A DNA stretch of 64,000 bases. Origin: an uncultured virus (IMG/VR IMGVR_UViG_3300028394_000058) (Duplodnaviria > Heunggongvirae > Uroviricota > Caudoviricetes). Under the pieces are notes generated by a model. That model did not search any database and was not told where the DNA came from. It worked only from the letters and a program-made list of their open reading frames with translations. The position numbers and the translations under genes were made by a program. Numbering within the stretch: the first letter of the stretch is position 1; every line of letters begins with the position of its first letter. Where the stretch lies: the IMG/VR virus record IMGVR_UViG_3300028394_000058; one strand, 5' to 3'. Below, one piece after another: positions 428-31,937 of this stretch.

Positions 428-754
428 ATGGCTGAAAAAACTGTAAACTATACCCCTGAGCAAACCCTGAATTTGATTGCCGATTACAAAAACGGTTTTA
501 CCGTTGAAGAATTGGCTTTGCAAATGGGCAAATCGGTTCGCTCAATTGTTGCTAAACTTTCGCGTGAAGGAGTTTATCAAAAGAAAACCTATAAAACAAA
601 AACCGGCGAGGTAGTTGTTAAAAAAGACGCGCACGCTGATGCAATTGGCGCAATTCTCCGATTGCCGGAAAATGACATTGAATCCCTGACCAAGGCTAAT
701 AAATCGGCATTGAAAGCCATTTTCGACGCATTGGCTAATTCAAAACCCATTTAA
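428..754 (+). CDS. T5 A2/D3-like HTH DNA-binding protein (paralog 1)
   Basis: NYTPEQ...GKSVRSIVAKLSREGVY...ESLTKANK resembles the T5 A2/D3 family; paralogous to 1546..1857 and 2714..3034. Confidence 0.65.
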   Translation: MAEKTVNYTPEQTLNLIADYKNGFTVEELALQMGKSVRSIVAKLSREGVYQKKTYKTKTGEVVVKKDAHADAIGAILRLPENDIESLTKANKSALKAIFDALANSKPI

Positions 755-764
755 TTGGGCGTTT

Positions 765-795
765 AATAAAACCGGCAATTGCCGGTTTTATTTTA
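765..795 (+). terminator. intrinsic terminator / perfect 28-bp palindrome
   Basis: AATAAAACCGGCAATTGCCGGTTTTATT followed by T residues. Confidence 0.75.
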
Positions 796-845
796 TGCAA
801 ATCGTTTTAAAAAATATAATCGTTATATTTTTTAAAACGGCGCCC

Positions 846-875
846 ATTATACTAGTATAATGGGGAACGTGTCAA
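846..875 (-). promoter_or_regulatory. consensus sigma70 promoter with no credible downstream ORF
   Basis: TTGACA-18 bp-TATAAT on the minus strand. Confidence 0.6.
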
Positions 876-984
876 GGGGTTGTGCAAAAATACAACATTA
901 GGGGAAACCCTAATAGTCAAACCAAAAACGCACCCATTTACACCCATTTTTTCGTTATAAATTCTGGAACTATATGGCGCCAAA

Positions 985-1014
985 ATTATACCATAATTTT
1001 GGGGCGCGTGTCAA
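985..1014 (-). promoter_or_regulatory. consensus sigma70 promoter with no credible downstream ORF
   Basis: TTGACA-18 bp-TATAAT on the minus strand. Confidence 0.6.
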
Positions 1015-1239
1015 GCGTTTTGCAAAAATACAACATAGGGACTTTCCCTAATAGGGTAAACCCGTAGGGCAAATTTTGCCGTTGTTTTTTCACCACAGGC
1101 AAATTTTGCCGTTGTTTTTTCACCACACCGGCAAAATTTTCCTTATAAATTCTGGCACTATGCTGCGGCGCAGCACGACCCCAGGCGCGCTGCGCCAGTG
1201 CAAAAACTAGTGCAAATTCTTGCAAGTGCTTACGCCTGG

Positions 1240-1269
1240 ATTATACAGTGGTTGAGCTACCCTTGTCAA
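1240..1269 (-). promoter_or_regulatory. consensus sigma70 promoter with no credible downstream ORF
   Basis: TTGACA-18 bp-TATAAT on the minus strand. Confidence 0.6.
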
Positions 1270-1308
1270 GTCAATATTTTTAGGCGTGGCACAAGCAAAA
1301 ATTCAGTG

Positions 1309-1337
1309 TTGATTCTGCCCGCTAAAGCCTGTATAAT
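1309..1337 (+). promoter_or_regulatory. sigma70-type promoter
   Basis: TTGATT-17 bp-TATAAT. Confidence 0.7.
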
Positions 1338-1367
1338 ATATTCTTAAGTTGATGAGGGAAACCAAAC

Positions 1368-1493
1368 ATGACAGACTTTCAAAATGATCAAGAAGAATGG
1401 TGGCTGGATTGGAAAGACGAACATTTCGATTATCCCCAGTATCCGCAAAGCACGCCAGACCCTAGTAATTTTGATCTTGATATTCCCTTCTGA
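1368..1493 (+). CDS. 41-aa acidic peptide ending NFDLDIPF (not in ORF track)
   Basis: MTDFQNDQEEWWLDWKDEHFDYPQYPQSTPDPSNFDLDIPF; own promoter and GAGGGA RBS. Confidence 0.7.
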   Translation: MTDFQNDQEEWWLDWKDEHFDYPQYPQSTPDPSNFDLDIPF

Positions 1494-1917: not shown

Positions 1918-2540
1918 ATAGACAGTTAGGAAAGAGCTTATCTGAAAGGACAAAGCGCAGATACCGGCATCACGTACCACTACCCCGCCAGCAAGCCAAT
2001 GTATAGCTAGCAATTTGTAGTGCCAAGTACACGGCCGACGACTGTTTGTCTCAGTGGGTGACAGCGGCGCGTTATATATGCAAGCGTCTTAATTGTGGGG
2101 AATTTATGTTAAAGCCGAGCCACAGCCCTGAGCAGTTTACTCAACTTTTGATTTTAGTCAAAAGTCTATTTTAGTGGCTAGTCTATTTTTATGGCTAGTC
2201 TTTTTACGAAATCCTGGACCCTAAGGTTCGCAACCCAGATGGCTACCAGGTGGTTGTAAGCACCCAAACTTACCAAGTTGTCTAGAACTTGTAAATAACT
2301 TAGACGGTGTTCCTCCGGGACCTTACGAGAGGTGTGCAACTAGAGCAGTACTGTCTAGCGGTTAGGCCCGCTAGTAAAATATAGGCTCAGGGTTGATGAC
2401 GCAGTGTGCTAGCGTTTGCGCTAGTTGCTCTGCCAGACCCTACCGCGGTTTGGCAAAGTGTAAACTCGGCTTAACCTGCATTAAAAACTTCTCGAGAGTT
2501 CAAAAACCCGCAAGGCGACGGCTTTAGCGGGTTTTTGTTT
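1918..2540 (+). ncRNA. candidate large structured non-coding RNA (~620 nt), family unassigned
   Basis: promoter-to-terminator unit with no sense ORF of 60 aa or more; long-range complementarities 2112-2119/2465-2472, 2124-2133/2385-2394, 2084-2088/2398-2402, 2078-2082/2477-2481; many local hairpins. Confidence 0.65.
2501..2540 (+). terminator. intrinsic terminator
   Basis: CAAAAACCCGC...GCGGGTTTTTGTTT. Confidence 0.75.
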
Positions 2541-2713: not shown

Positions 2714-3034
2714 TTATTGGGGATTTGGGCAGTTTTGGTGACTTAAACGGGTTTCTATGACCTGAAGAATACCTTTATTTACCTTTTCTAGACTTTCTAG
2801 GAGTTCGGGGTTCATATTTAAGAGCTTAGCGATGTTTTCTATGTGCTCTGACTTCTTGGTAGGCACTTCACCGCGCTTGTTCAGGTAGGCTTTTTTCTGG
2901 TAAACACCTAAACTTGACAGCTTAGCAATGATACTGCGCTCCGGCACCTCCAGATCTTGTGCAATTTTTTGGACTTGAACGCCGGTTTTGTATTGCTCTA
3001 CCAGACGGTCAGTAATTTCTTTAGTATATTTCAA
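2714..3034 (-). CDS. T5 A2/D3-like HTH DNA-binding protein (paralog 3)
   Basis: ERSIIAKLSSLGVYQKK...ESLEKVNK; TTG start with AGGAG RBS. Confidence 0.6.
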   Translation of the reverse strand: MKYTKEITDRLVEQYKTGVQVQKIAQDLEVPERSIIAKLSSLGVYQKKAYLNKRGEVPTKKSEHIENIAKLLNMNPELLESLEKVNKGILQVIETRLSHQNCPNPQ

Positions 3035-3046
3035 GTGCTTCTCCTA

Positions 3047-3835
3047 TTAATCCTCCCAAGGGAGTTTAAGCTCGTCTTGGGGCATTGTTACAATTTCCTG
3101 TTTTTTCGACCCTAAATCAAACACTTCGCCAACCACTAGTGGTTGTGGCATCACATCCCAATTTTTTGGATCTAGGATCATCAGCTCAGTTCTAAGGCTA
3201 GGATGTGCAACCCAAATTTGGCACAACACAGTGCTCAAGAGGGTAGGAGCACCCTGAAAAGGTGTAGCAGCCAGCCCATGCAGTTTCCACTGCGATTGAG
3301 GTTTGTTTTGTTGACCAGCTTTGGCTCCGGTTCTAGCAGTCAACCCAAAGTTTCTGATTTCAATCAACTCCTCTGACCCTAAACCTAAACAATCACCACT
3401 GTACTCCATAACCTCTAAAAGTTCTTTGTGTACTAGGCTATCCAAGCCGGTTAAATCCCAACGACTGTAGGGAATACCCTGATGTCGTTTCATGCCAGCT
3501 AAGATTATGGGGACCAGTTGACTATAATTTCTACCCCACTCCGAACTCTGCGTTTTGACTAAGGTCCCGCGCTTTAGCTGGGTAACTACCCGCCACAAGC
3601 CTATATCCCACTTTGTCTTAATATTCTGCTTTGCTGTCGCCCTAGGGTCTAGGCGTTGGTTGGGGAGTGGGACCGCCTGCCAAGTGCCGTAATACGCGGA
3701 GATTTGGGGCAGCATCCACAAGCCGTAGAGGTTAAGTTGATGCTCCTCAGCCTGTTTAAGCAAATCCTCCTTATTTAAATCATGGTAAGCCTCAAAAGGC
3801 ACAAGTTTAAGATCGTTTGATTTTAATTTTAGCAT
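3047..3835 (-). CDS. D2: T5 D2-like protein
   Basis: YSQLVPIILAGMK...Y.RWD and LCQIWV match the recalled T5 D2 motifs; start placed at MLKLKS. Confidence 0.7.
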   Translation of the reverse strand: MLKLKSNDLKLVPFEAYHDLNKEDLLKQAEEHQLNLYGLWMLPQISAYYGTWQAVPLPNQRLDPRATAKQNIKTKWDIGLWRVVTQLKRGTLVKTQSSEWGRNYSQLVPIILAGMKRHQGIPYSRWDLTGLDSLVHKELLEVMEYSGDCLGLGSEELIEIRNFGLTARTGAKAGQQNKPQSQWKLHGLAATPFQGAPTLLSTVLCQIWVAHPSLRTELMILDPKNWDVMPQPLVVGEVFDLGSKKQEIVTMPQDELKLPWED

Positions 3836-4091
3836 ATACGTATAGATACAATTTGCCTTAGTTGTAGGAAATTTTTTTAATTGCATAAACTTCGAAAACT
3901 TCTACATTGCAAAAGCTAAATTTTATTAACGCTCTCCCCGTGGGGCTCAGGCGAGAGCTATAAAATTTGCTTTTTTATGTTTTCTTGTTTACTTATAAAA
4001 AATTTCTTTGTTTACATCTCACTAGATTTAACAATATTATAGCATATTTATTTGCTGAAGTAAAGGCTGATTTTTAGTCGTGCCTCTGATT

Positions 4092-13410: not shown

Positions 13411-13614
13411 ATGGCAGGTTATACCCGCAATTTTTTGATTGATGTTGCACTACACCGATACCACATTCTTAATCTTTCAGCAGAAGAAAAAGCTAAAGAT
13501 CGTGCTAGATGTGAACTTACCTATGATAAATACGGCAAAGATAAGTTTCGTGAGTATACTTGCGTAACTCCACAAGCAATTCGTGATTATAAATCCTACT
13601 TAAAAAATGTTTAA
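13411..13614 (+). CDS. hypothetical protein
   Basis: promoter at 13359-13387 and GGAG RBS. Confidence 0.6.
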   Translation: MAGYTRNFLIDVALHRYHILNLSAEEKAKDRARCELTYDKYGKDKFREYTCVTPQAIRDYKSYLKNV

Positions 13615-14617
13615 TCAAAACGTCAAACGCATTGGTTTTGCTTGCAAAATCCAAGAATCTCAAAGCAAAGCCAATCCTAGCCTAAATACTAAAACTACTA
13701 CTCTTACTTGGCTTAACAAGCAGACTAAACACGTTGCAGTAGAACGACTACACGATATTGCTAAACACAATATTCAAATTTTGCAACGTCAAATGACTTG
13801 GCTTGCTGCTAGCCCGCCACATTTGCGTATGTTTCGTATGAGCAGCGACCTGCTGCCAGCATATACTCACGAAGACTGGACTTGGGCATATTTTGACCAA
13901 GACATGGTTAATCTACTTAGTACCGGCTTTGCCAAAGTAGGCGAGCTGGCTCGCAAACACGATATTAAGATTAGTTTTCATCCAGGTCAGTTTTGTGTGC
14001 TAGCTAGTGAAAATCCTAACGTAGTGGAAAATTCAATTCAAGAGTTCGAGTATCACTGCGACATAATCCGCTACATGGGATATGGCCAACAATTTCAAGA
14101 CTTTAAATGCAATGTTCACATTGGCGGCAAGCTAGGTCCAGCAGGTATTAAAGCTGTGCTGCCTAAACTCAGCCGCGAAGCGCGTAATACCTTAACTATC
14201 GAAAATGCCGAATATACTTGGGGTCTTGACGCTAGTCTTGAACTTGCTAAAGATTGTGCACTAGTGCTTGACATACATCATCACTGGATTAATACTGGCA
14301 AGTACATTGAGCCTACCGACCCTAAAGTAATGCAAGTTATTGATAGCTGGCGCGGTGTTAGACCTACGCTACACTACAGTGTTAGCCGCGAGGATGTACT
14401 AGTTGATCACGATCCTACCACTATGCCTTGCTTAACTCAACTAAAACAACAGGGGTTTACCAGTGCCAAGCTTAGAGCTCATAGCGACTATTATTGGAAT
14501 CAAGCTGTTAGTGCTTGGGCCGCTAGTTTTCTGCCAGATTTTGACATTATGTGCGAGTCTAAAGAAAAAAATCTAGCTAGCCACGAGTTTGCAAAATCTG
14601 CTCTTGATTTTGCCTAG
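13607..14617 (+). CDS. uvsE: UV damage endonuclease (UVDE)
   Basis: RIGFAC, MFRMSSD, SFHPGQF.VLAS, IEN, LDIHHH, AHSD, DIMCESK.K. Confidence 0.9.
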   Translation: MFNQNVKRIGFACKIQESQSKANPSLNTKTTTLTWLNKQTKHVAVERLHDIAKHNIQILQRQMTWLAASPPHLRMFRMSSDLLPAYTHEDWTWAYFDQDMVNLLSTGFAKVGELARKHDIKISFHPGQFCVLASENPNVVENSIQEFEYHCDIIRYMGYGQQFQDFKCNVHIGGKLGPAGIKAVLPKLSREARNTLTIENAEYTWGLDASLELAKDCALVLDIHHHWINTGKYIEPTDPKVMQVIDSWRGVRPTLHYSVSREDVLVDHDPTTMPCLTQLKQQGFTSAKLRAHSDYYWNQAVSAWAASFLPDFDIMCESKEKNLASHEFAKSALDFA

Positions 14618-21632: not shown

Positions 21633-21720
21633 TATAAAAATATTCTGGTCGGTGTGGTGAGACACGCAAGTAGACAATACTAGGACAAGGTTTGAATCCA
21701 AACTAGAGTATTTTTATATG

Positions 21721-22016
21721 GTTGTATGAAACGAGCCGAAAGGCGCGCTGGACGTGGGTTCGACTCCCACCTGGTCCACCAGAAGCACATATAGTTGTCC
21801 TAGATGAAAGAAACCTCTGAGGGCTCTAGCGGGGATTATTGTGTGCTTCTGATGGGCCAGCCATGGTTTCGACAGTGTGATAAGTATGCAAGTGGACAAC
21901 TCGGTAGGCGATCTCCGCAAAAGAAGCAAACTATATAAATGCCAACGATGAGGTATTTGCCCTAGCCGCTTAAGCTAGTGCCGAGGTATGCCCCCGCCTT
22001 GTAACCAAGGGGGGCT
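21721..22016 (+). ncRNA. ssrA: circularly permuted (two-piece) tmRNA
   Basis: T-arm plus CTGGTCC-A-CCA (21754-21781) precedes the 5' acceptor strand GGGCCAG (21854-21860); G3:U70 pair; tag ORF 21941-21973 ANDEVFALAA-stop; ends approximate. Confidence 0.9.
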
Positions 22017-22027
22017 TTTTTATTTTA
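21990..22027 (+). terminator. intrinsic terminator closing the tmRNA gene
   Basis: GCCCCC..CTTG...CAAGGGGGGC followed by a T run. Confidence 0.75.
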
Positions 22028-22034
22028 TATTCCT

Positions 22035-22652
22035 ATGACTAAAAATGCAACAGATAATGAATTTATCCTCGACACAGGTAATAGTCGTGGGTTTCGTAAA
22101 TGTACTAGTGCACTTTACGAATTTTACTTGAGTGGTTTAATTACTGGACCCGAAGATTACATTGAGTGGTTTAATACTATTCGTAGTGCTAGTGATCAAG
22201 ATGTAGTAAAAATTTATATTAATAGTAGTGGTGGAGATCTTAATTGTGCATTACAATTTATGCGTGTGTTAAGTGAAACACCCGCTACTGTAGTGTGTAG
22301 TGTTGAGGGCAGTTGCATGAGTGCTGCTACAATGATCTTCTTATGTGCTGATATATTTGAAGTAACACCGCACAGCTTATTTATGTTTCACAACTATAGT
22401 GGTGGCATATTTGGTAAAGGTGGGGAAATTTATGATCAAGCAGTATTTGAGCGTGAGTGGTCTCGACAATTCTTGCAGCATATTTACAAAGACTTCTTAA
22501 CTGAAAAAGAAATTGAAAGTCTGTTGGAAAATAAAGACTTGTGGTTGCACAGTGAAGAAGTAAGTTGCAGAGTAGAAAAACTTTGTGAAGCTAAAAGGGC
22601 TACAAGAGATGCTGACTCCGTGTGTGATGATTTGCAAGATGACGCCGAGTAA
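22035..22652 (+). CDS. ClpP-like serine protease
   Basis: IYINSSGG, CMSAAT (Ser), FMFHN (His), DLWL..EE. Confidence 0.85.
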   Translation: MTKNATDNEFILDTGNSRGFRKCTSALYEFYLSGLITGPEDYIEWFNTIRSASDQDVVKIYINSSGGDLNCALQFMRVLSETPATVVCSVEGSCMSAATMIFLCADIFEVTPHSLFMFHNYSGGIFGKGGEIYDQAVFEREWSRQFLQHIYKDFLTEKEIESLLENKDLWLHSEEVSCRVEKLCEAKRATRDADSVCDDLQDDAE

Positions 22653-30557: not shown

Positions 30558-31937
30558 ATGGATGTTTCAGCCGTAGTCTTAAATAAACTGCTTCAAGAGC
30601 AGAGCTTAGATATCTGGGCTAAATTGAAGCTAGTGTTTTTAGATCCGGCTTACTCGTCCTTGTACAGTGTTATCAATAAGCATTATGAAAAATATAATGC
30701 TATTCCTAATTTTGATGACCTAGAACTTACACTGCGAGAAGGCCCGGCAGCAAAAACTCTAGCAACACTAAAACTAACTGAAGTTCCTGACGTAAGTGCT
30801 GAAATAGCCTTAGATGCACTTATTGATCAGTATACACAAAACGAAACAGTAAAACTACTAGACAAATTTATAGATAAACTGCCGCTTTACGACTCAAACG
30901 AAATAAAAGAAAATTTAGCCACAATAGCACTTACAATTGAAGAAAAGACACACACCAGTGAAAAAGTCTTTACTATGGCTGATATTATGATGTTTCAACA
31001 TCCTGAAGAACTGGAGAAAGAACGTGTTTATCTTGGGCTTAATAATACTTTTGACGCTGTACTTGGTGGTGTGGCTAGACAAGAACTCATCCTCATTGGA
31101 GGCAAAAGGGGTAGCGGTAAAAGTATCACTAGTAGTAATATTTTTGTTAATCAGTATGAGTCTGGAAACAGTAGTCTTTACTTTTCTATTGAGATGACTG
31201 CATATGAAACCATGCAGCGAAATTTGGCAATCTTAGCCAATGTAAATTTGCAAAACTTAAAACAAAATAAACTAACTGATCAAGAATTACTACGCGTAGT
31301 TCACGCCAGATCTGGAATGTTTGAAGGAGCCGAGTCGTTAGTAGACGATTTCTTACGACACAGAGATAGGTTTAAATTTGAAGAAACTTTAGTTAGAAAC
31401 TTTAAACTAAAGCCCGACAATCAAATGATTATTGTTGATGATAGAGATCTAACTTTGGGCGCTATTGATTTGCATATTGGAAAAACTAAAGCTAAATTTG
31501 GAGACAAATTAGGTGTTGTAGTAGTAGACTATGTTAATCAAATTGTACTAGAAGGTAATAGTCAGTATGACTGGCAACCACAAATTGAAGTTTCAAAGAA
31601 GTTAAAGAACTTGGCTAGAAAATACGAAGTAGTAATAGTAAGCCCATATCAAATTGACGCTAATGGTGAAGCCAGATTTGCCAAAGGCATTTTAGACGCA
31701 GCAGATATAGCACTAGTAATGGAAGCACATGAAAAAGACGTACAAGCAATTAGTTTTGAAACAACAAAGATTCGGGGCGGAAAAGAGATGGCTTTTACAT
31801 GCCCTATTGATTGGGACACACTCAGAATCTCCCCCCAAAGTATTGATCGCCCATCTAAAAAAGAACCTGTCAAAAAGAGTAAAAAAACAGATAATCAAAC
31901 ACAAGAACTCGCAACTGATTTACCTTGGGACGCATAG
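30558..31937 (+). CDS. D6: DnaB-like replicative helicase (T5 D6)
   Basis: Walker A GKRGSGKS, FSIEM, VVDYVN, SPYQ. Confidence 0.88.
   Translation: MDVSAVVLNKLLQEQSLDIWAKLKLVFLDPAYSSLYSVINKHYEKYNAIPNFDDLELTLREGPAAKTLATLKLTEVPDVSAEIALDALIDQYTQNETVKLLDKFIDKLPLYDSNEIKENLATIALTIEEKTHTSEKVFTMADIMMFQHPEELEKERVYLGLNNTFDAVLGGVARQELILIGGKRGSGKSITSSNIFVNQYESGNSSLYFSIEMTAYETMQRNLAILANVNLQNLKQNKLTDQELLRVVHARSGMFEGAESLVDDFLRHRDRFKFEETLVRNFKLKPDNQMIIVDDRDLTLGAIDLHIGKTKAKFGDKLGVVVVDYVNQIVLEGNSQYDWQPQIEVSKKLKNLARKYEVVIVSPYQIDANGEARFAKGILDAADIALVMEAHEKDVQAISFETTKIRGGKEMAFTCPIDWDTLRISPQSIDRPSKKEPVKKSKKTDNQTQELATDLPWDA

Follow-up and report, generated by a model that had tools for sequence, protein, structure and literature searches.

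The locus lies in a window of 64,000 nucleotides (by which we mean the whole stretch of DNA that was analyzed) that is part of an uncultured T5-like freshwater phage, and most of the stretch is present in one freshwater metagenome run. We found here a plus-strand microprotein gene of 41 codons (positions 1368 to 1493) with an ATG start, whose 41-aa product ends NFDLDIPF and which stands directly upstream of A2b, the gene of an A2-like DNA-binding protein (1546 to 1857, +; phrog_1725 at E = 2.3e-6, and synteny) that is its fixed downstream neighbor. The microprotein gene is preceded by a promoter of the sigma-70 type, TTGATT-17-TATAAT (1309 to 1337, +; 10 of 12 consensus positions), and by a ribosome-binding site, GAGGGA (1354 to 1359, +), 8 nt before the ATG; most relatives have a similarly spaced promoter, and before their ATG stand purine-rich sites of the AGGA, GGAG, or AGGG type. 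A further promoter, TTGATA-17-TATAAT (1477 to 1505, +; 11 of 12), serves A2b. Two more A2-like paralogues, both assigned by PHROG match and synteny, frame the locus: A2a (428 to 754, +) is the upstream landmark, and A2c (2714 to 3034, −) opens the opposite-strand block. The open reading frame (ORF), its promoter, and its ribosome-binding site are all as the original prediction described them, and the peptide is acidic and aromatic as claimed, with a net charge of -10 and 9 aromatic residues.

In a near-identical relative (G001), the gene order runs from the structural genes and the terminase through a gap, an A2-like gene, a dmp homologue, an exonuclease-like ORF, A2a, and a repeat-rich gap to the peptide and A2b, which places the microprotein gene among A2 and dmp homologues beside the terminase block, the location of the T5 pre-early genes. 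As described for T5 (NC_005859; 10.1101/866236), A2 and dmp homologues lie between the terminase and early blocks, beside a repeat-rich noncoding stretch. A profile of A2b-type proteins matched T5 A2 at E = 3.9e-6 among 18 T5 proteins, and tblastn of A2a and A2b against cultured phages gave no matches. Unlike the T5 pre-early region, the region holds four A2 paralogues (window 428-754, 1546-1857, and 2714-3034, and L081:18241-18579), none of the T5 pre-early proteins resembles the peptide, and T5 A1, annotated as required for host DNA degradation (NC_005859), was not found in any of 5 near-complete relatives in a search run without a positive control genome. The A2 and dmp neighborhood makes early expression of the microprotein gene probable, in line with the original prediction, although the same promoter type precedes genes throughout the window.

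The reading frame is under purifying selection

Upon searching with A2b, we obtained 688 related stretches and took the best 80; 4 without a match at the A2b position were left out and the window was added, giving 77 loci. An acidic ORF of 40 to 48 codons with an ATG and a ribosome-binding site lay directly upstream of A2b in 52 of these 77 syntenic loci (from the best 80 of 688), and 5 further loci held a distant or frameshifted family member; several loci carried no such ORF, and L069, L070, and L059 had tandem promoters without one. Pooled over the N-terminal half, pN/pS was 0.33 in the 44-aa class, 0.46 in the 43-aa class, 0.20 in the 41-aa class, and 0.21 in the 40-aa class, compared to 0.79 to 1.68 in shifted frames, while 13 sequences of the window's own clade gave 0.36 over codons 2 to 31, compared to 1.48 and 1.02 in the shifted frames. 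The microprotein ORF is hence a real gene, under purifying selection only in its own frame. It was predicted to be unannotated, which holds for its function; as a gene, it has been called in many relatives, as a hypothetical protein. Among assembled RNA contigs, which give neither strand nor level, one of 186 nt with a relative's copy spans positions 1374 to 1549 in 1 of 4 libraries.

A search with the family profile returned 213 proteins at E ≤ 1, and the homologue counts given below rest on the 120 that were listed. For the peptide itself, no PHROG family was found at E ≤ 0.1 and no Pfam family at E ≤ 1, tblastn against cultured phages yielded only 8 weak chance matches, a protein atlas gave no usable match to a main-lineage peptide or to a neighboring protein of 279 aa, and in the PDB, the family profile matched by sequence nothing beyond designer repeat proteins and, weakly, one further entry. 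An AlphaFold model based on 95 sequences consists of one helix over residues 2 to 20 (1371 to 1427, +; pLDDT about 76 to 83) and a low-confidence tail, with no strand. Together with the length of 41 aa, this bears out the predicted absence of an OB fold. The acidic-aromatic N-terminal helix is the constant part of the peptide, and two of the residues in the N-terminal half, F6 and E17, never change among 31 sequences of the main lineage.

Promoter overlap accounts for much of the SSB-like tip

The end of the window's peptide matches the DFDDDIPF tip of bacterial SSB at 7 of 8 places, with the distal D-I-P-F present at a free C-terminus. The proximal segment reads N-F-D-L in place of D-F-D-D, with the Phe and one Asp matching, and this stretch is dictated by the promoter: the codons N-F-D-L-D (1467 to 1481, +) lie over the UP element and −35 of the next promoter and are largely set by its consensus, which in 291 other promoters of these loci is aaaAattt..ac TTGa and, in the window's register, reads mostly F-x-L-[DE]. 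In the 44-aa class, synonymous changes are nearly absent from codons 37 to 40. As the promoter consensus encodes N-F-x-L-D, the N-F-D-L-D of the peptide carries little weight, and only P-F and part of I are therefore promoter-free, so that P-F-stop becomes the test. The codons I-P-F-stop (1482 to 1493, +) form the distal SSB-tip-like motif and fall in the promoter spacer; the wobble bases of Val/Ile and Asp in this spacer are nearly fixed, and hence some DNA constraint reaches into the tip. The caveat attached to the original prediction, that the last codons overlap the next promoter (1477 to 1505), thus holds and is weightier than was stated then. For genome scans, this calls for caution: most of an SSB-like tip can come from a promoter consensus alone, and tips of this kind should therefore be tested both by codon and by clade.

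In this phage, genes often overlap a promoter at their ends. One other ORF of the window (13607 to 14617, +), which by eye we take to be UV-damage-endonuclease-like, also ends across a promoter −35, with L-D-F-A-stop.

The tip is selected as protein in the main lineage

To trace substitutions base by base, we used 31 nonredundant 44-aa members picked by length and promoter register, a set that, with its length fixed at 44 aa, cannot show read-through. The parsimony steps per codon position were 0, 0, and 2 for Asp; 4, 0, and 2 for Val/Ile/Leu; 0, 0, and 11 for Pro; 3, 3, and 9 for Phe; and 0, 3, and 4 for the stop codon, compared to 11, 12, and 8 for the three bases after the stop and 3 to 15 in the spacer of the gene's own promoter. 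The Pro is invariant in these sequences despite 11 changes of its wobble base on the tree, and the stop, fixed in position, is variously TAA, TGA, or TAG. Selection in the main 44-aa lineage clearly acts at the protein level on the Pro and on the place of the stop, and among the listed homologues, 81 of 120 end in D[VI]PF.

The tip sits 3 or 6 nt (once 4 nt) before the −10. Using tip-blind patterns that fixed only the UP/−35 and −10 elements, we obtained 114 matches, 93 of them nonredundant, in which D[VI]Px-stop occurred in 37 of 39 family members but in none of 53 other promoter-like matches, with one frameshifted family member in addition. A distant member, L077, keeps FFEDVPF with other codons and outside any promoter, its stop being 17 nt upstream of the next −35, and its one homologue in the protein search has the same ending. 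In L066 (L066:3819-3955), the family ORF is frameshifted at a run of A and the tip is intact in another frame, which may be an assembly error or a real allele.

The tip varies in the window's own clade

The terminal Phe is far less constant than the Pro. Among the 120 listed homologues, the last residue is Phe in 83, Gln in 10, Tyr in 7, Leu in 6, His in 2, and Trp in 1, with read-through in 4 and the motif absent in 7; the Phe changes 6 times among the 31 main-lineage sequences, and even among sequences clustered at 90% identity it flips, in 4 of 15 listed members of one cluster and 3 of 14 of another. The window's own clade, collected with patterns ending before the tip and supplemented by two profile matches, comprised 16 distinct intact ORFs, which end IPF in 4 cases, IPY in 4, IPW in 1, IPN in 2, and IDN in 5, so that 7 end in Asn. 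Over the last two codons, 13 sequences of this clade gave a pN/pS of 1.82, which, small as the numbers are, carries no purifying signal. Conservation of the C-terminus, set beforehand as a test of the original prediction, thus breaks down in the window's clade, and the nearest relatives weaken the claim of a conserved SSB mimic at the end of the peptide. What speaks for a tip mimic is the near-complete match, the selection on Pro and stop in the main lineage, and the DVPF of L077; what speaks against it is that the Phe is not invariant.

As 43-aa members in the same register end VPF, the IPF of the window's clade looks ancestral and decaying. The clade is linked weakly to the main lineage, by its N-terminal part: against a profile built without it, its members score 0.1 to 9.8 bits, and 10 of 13 are matched by at most 10 of 300 shuffles. 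Members with the ending EILTC lack the tip and are interspersed with DDVPF members on the A2b tree, which, with 31 of 57 inner branches open, is too poorly resolved to order the gains and losses of tags. One locus, L002, in which the ORF is deleted and the spacer no longer reads IPF, was considered as a control for protein selection and rejected, the same IDN allele being present in 5 intact ORFs.

Clamp-like motifs occur in the same slot

A second kind of short motif, the pentapeptide QL[SD]LF of the β-clamp consensus (PMC12867686), is absent from the window's own peptide and occurs, as QL[SD]LF-type variants, in 13 of 182 slot peptides and homologues. L061 has lost DVPF and carries an N-terminal QLELF, as do 5 of its 6 homologues, the sixth having QHDLF, which is the mutationally tested clamp motif of Mu C (PMC12867686), and L271 carries an exact QLDLF, likewise N-terminal and in the same slot. 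This N-terminal type stands away from any promoter. A distant subfamily with an N-terminal EAxxFYGD, whose profile matches the main family at 70% probability, gave 13 matches, of which 3 end QLELFS, 3 QLKLFD, and 1 EDVPF, and 6 have tagless ends; among its DNA loci, 7 of 10 end untagged. Here, the C-terminal QL[EK]LF also overlaps a promoter T-tract.

QL.LF was observed in 11 of 179 peptides compared to 0.15 expected from shuffles, these peptides falling in two lineages. Among 182 distinct peptides, none of the 13 with a clamp motif (again two lineages only) has the tip, and 45 have neither tag; a Fisher test on these counts, which takes no account of kinship, was set aside. The clamp-motif lineages share the slot, and L061 also shares the 3' half, while their N-terminal halves mostly score no better than shuffles against the main profile. 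Given this weak homology of the N-terminal halves between lineages, the term family is in part positional. Two further ORFs were seen in the same slot, an acidic one of 44 aa ending EDFEF (L065:3709-3843) and, in the L011 clade, a peptide of 22 aa (L011:3877-3945).

Discussion

We suggest that the product of the slot is a microprotein made early, in which a conserved acidic helix is joined to a tag that can be exchanged and that addresses hubs of the host replisome; the SSB tip would be the ancestral tag, yet one that the peptide can do without. To this reading we give a probability of roughly 0.45. The slot before A2b would yield the acidic microprotein from its own promoter, read by the host RNA polymerase, and the constant acidic-aromatic helix could carry a short tag imitating one of the peptides used for docking in the host replisome. 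Most common, and ancestral, would be the SSB tip D-[VI]-P-F-COOH, kept by the window, while two other lineages would use a β-clamp motif. To judge from the sequences, the tags may bind the SSB-partner or clamp pockets of the host, such that a peptide present in excess and lacking a DNA-binding fold would sit in the pockets by which chi, ExoI, RecO, PriA, and other partners hold the tip, or in the clamp pocket. Host replication and repair would thereby be loosened, which the phage could afford, having genes for a polymerase, helicase, primase, SSB, and ligase of its own. That A1 was not found in the relatives leaves room for another such way of slowing the host. The benefit of the tag would be small or host-dependent, which would account for its decay in some lineages, half of the window's clade among them. 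More speculatively, its loss might be favored where titration of ExoI trips DRT10, a defense that is described as more active when SbcB runs short and as triggered by a phage protein with FDDDIPF (10.64898/2026.04.29.721553).

It is possible, though to our mind doubtful, that the peptide works through its N-terminal helix only, which might mimic DNA or plug a partner such as RNA polymerase, a host nuclease, or the basic A2-like proteins encoded nearby; the tip would then be mostly a promoter reading, and its Pro-Phe end an inheritance with little function. DNA mimicry is frequent among acidic helical peptides of phages; the window's peptide has a charge of -10 and a predicted helix. Furthermore, the helix is under selection also in tagless members (pN/pS of 0.21; 47 to 54 bits against the main profile), the promoter consensus gives F-x-L-[DE], and both the window's clade and the EILTC members have lost the tip. 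Such a mode of action, however, leaves unexplained why the Pro is fixed while its wobble base is free, why the stop keeps its position, why L077 has DVPF outside a promoter, and why two lineages carry clamp motifs.

The tip may instead address a phage reader of D-[LIM]-P-W tails and tune the assembly of the phage's own replisome. The helicase (window 30558-31937, +) ends D[LI]PW in the window and in 5 of 5 relatives, the 279-aa neighbor (window 3047-3886, −) ends x-P-W in 29 of 31 distinct C-termini, and Tyr and Trp are tolerated at the end of the peptide. We nevertheless regard this as improbable, in view of the dominance of Phe over Trp (83 versus 1 of 120 listed), of the 1 or 2 extra residues that the phage tails usually have and the peptide almost never, and of the clamp motifs in the same slot, which point to the host because no clamp was recognized by eye among the window's ORFs of at least 100 aa. 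We hold it for very improbable that the peptide is an adaptor that attaches by its helix to the phage SSB or an A2-like protein and uses its tag to recruit host enzymes to phage DNA without blocking them: the phage SSB does end EAVKELG, without a Phe tip, in the window and in 5 of 5 relatives, and the build of helix, linker, and tag has two parts as an adaptor would, but about 36 kb separate the microprotein gene from that of the SSB, the two belong to different transcription units, and the loss of the tag in 7 of 16 close relatives should then not be tolerated. That there is no functional peptide, only a chance frame between tandem promoters, is most unlikely, as purifying selection confined to this frame, seen in four length classes as well as in the window's clade, and the conserved start, ribosome-binding site, and length outweigh the tandem promoters without an ORF (L069, L070, and L059) and the single deletion (L002) and frameshift (L066) alleles.

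Our preferred reading, of a helix with an exchangeable host-directed tag, builds on what has been described of SSB. The C-terminal tip has the consensus DFDDDIPF (PMC10143822, PMC3159472), its terminal Phe and the carboxylate of that residue are described as essential (PMC3159472, PMC3045619), and a free SSB-Ct peptide acts as a competitive inhibitor of SSB-stimulated ExoI (PMC3159472). The window's peptide resembles SSB-Ct, as these papers present it (PMC3159472, PMC10143822, PMC3045619), in its free DIPF end, the acidic stretch before it, and the Phe at −7. It differs from bacterial SSB in having no OB fold, Leu for one Asp, a length of 41 aa, and a helix of its own, and from SSB-Ct in that the terminal Phe is not invariant among its relatives.

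SSB tips on phage OB-fold proteins are already in print (PMC13687109, 10.64898/2026.04.29.721553, 10.64898/2026.10.27.754916). Protein 0087 of Bas52, with a DDIPF tip, is reported as the trigger of DRT10 and DRT4 (10.64898/2026.04.29.721553, 10.64898/2026.10.27.754916), and prophage DUF669 proteins are described as SSB-like with DDIPF tips (PMC13687109). The peptide shares with them a phage-encoded copy of a host tip, for which partners such as ExoI (SbcB) have been proposed; in contrast, they are, from what these papers state, OB-fold proteins that bind single-stranded DNA, whereas the peptide has no DNA-binding fold and could therefore only compete or bridge. A literature search on phage SSB-tip mimics and decoys, with most subscription papers lying outside it, found no free phage micropeptide with an SSB tip.

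Clamp-directed phage proteins have parallels of their own. Twort Gp168, going by the title of the paper on it (PMC8565349), reportedly inhibits the clamp by acting through its DNA channel. The slot relatives that carry QLDLF, QLELF, QHDLF, or QLKLF, unlike the window's peptide, resemble Mu C as it is described (PMC12867686), and small clamp-acting proteins that stop host replication are documented, e.g., the pneumococcal RipA toxin (PMC12795458). The accessible text on Mu C, Gp168, and RipA describes no exchange between SSB tips and clamp tags.

More widely, and tentatively, the slot may house stand-alone microproteins with swappable replisome-hub tags (mostly the SSB tip, a clamp motif at either end, or none), i.e., natural peptide inhibitors that would stop host replication without a nuclease and whose tags would be lost through their cost, for example by tripping ExoI-guarded defenses of the DRT10 type. 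A slot with two kinds of replisome tag is a more interesting and testable result than a tip mimic alone. If true, it would give T5-like phages a nuclease-free route to host takeover. Synthetic peptides have been made against both the SSB-tip and the clamp pockets as antibacterial targets; the natural series of about 44 aa, with its Phe, Tyr, Leu, Gln, Asn, clamp-motif, and tagless alleles, is a ready structure-function panel.

Other features of the phage and the region

The best cultured matches of the family-A polymerase are Vibrio phages, e.g., Thalassa and pVp-1, at about 50% identity, and a PHROG search showed that the window also encodes a D5-like regulator, a DnaB-like helicase, and a T5-type SSB. 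The [DE]-[LIM]-P-W tail common to the helicase and the 279-aa protein is possibly a phage-internal docking motif. A permuted (two-piece) tmRNA lies at window 21662-22064 (+), with the betaproteobacterial RF01850 as the top model (135 bits), which weakly suggests where the host belongs; in a marine phage, the tmRNA is known to come from a class other than that of its host (PMC9004378). Metagenome-assembled genomes assigned no host, the 4 matches to A2a being short contigs in unrelated bins.

Noncoding stretches rich in repeats and palindromes occupy window 760-1300 and 2582-2610, with perfect-consensus minus-strand promoters at 875, 1014, 1269, and 2610. No contig in any of the 4 RNA libraries covers positions 676 to 1333, and the repeat-rich stretch could be an injection-stop-like region. 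Downstream of A2b, we noted a candidate noncoding RNA of about 600 nt (window 1918-2540, +) with its own promoter (1883 to 1911) and a terminal hairpin, for which an Rfam search gave no match near the gathering score. The candidate RNA has a folding z-score of -4.0 and partial contig cover in 4 of 4 RNA libraries, and a core of about 80 nt is present in 44 of 80 loci (the best 80 of the 688 A2b-related stretches).
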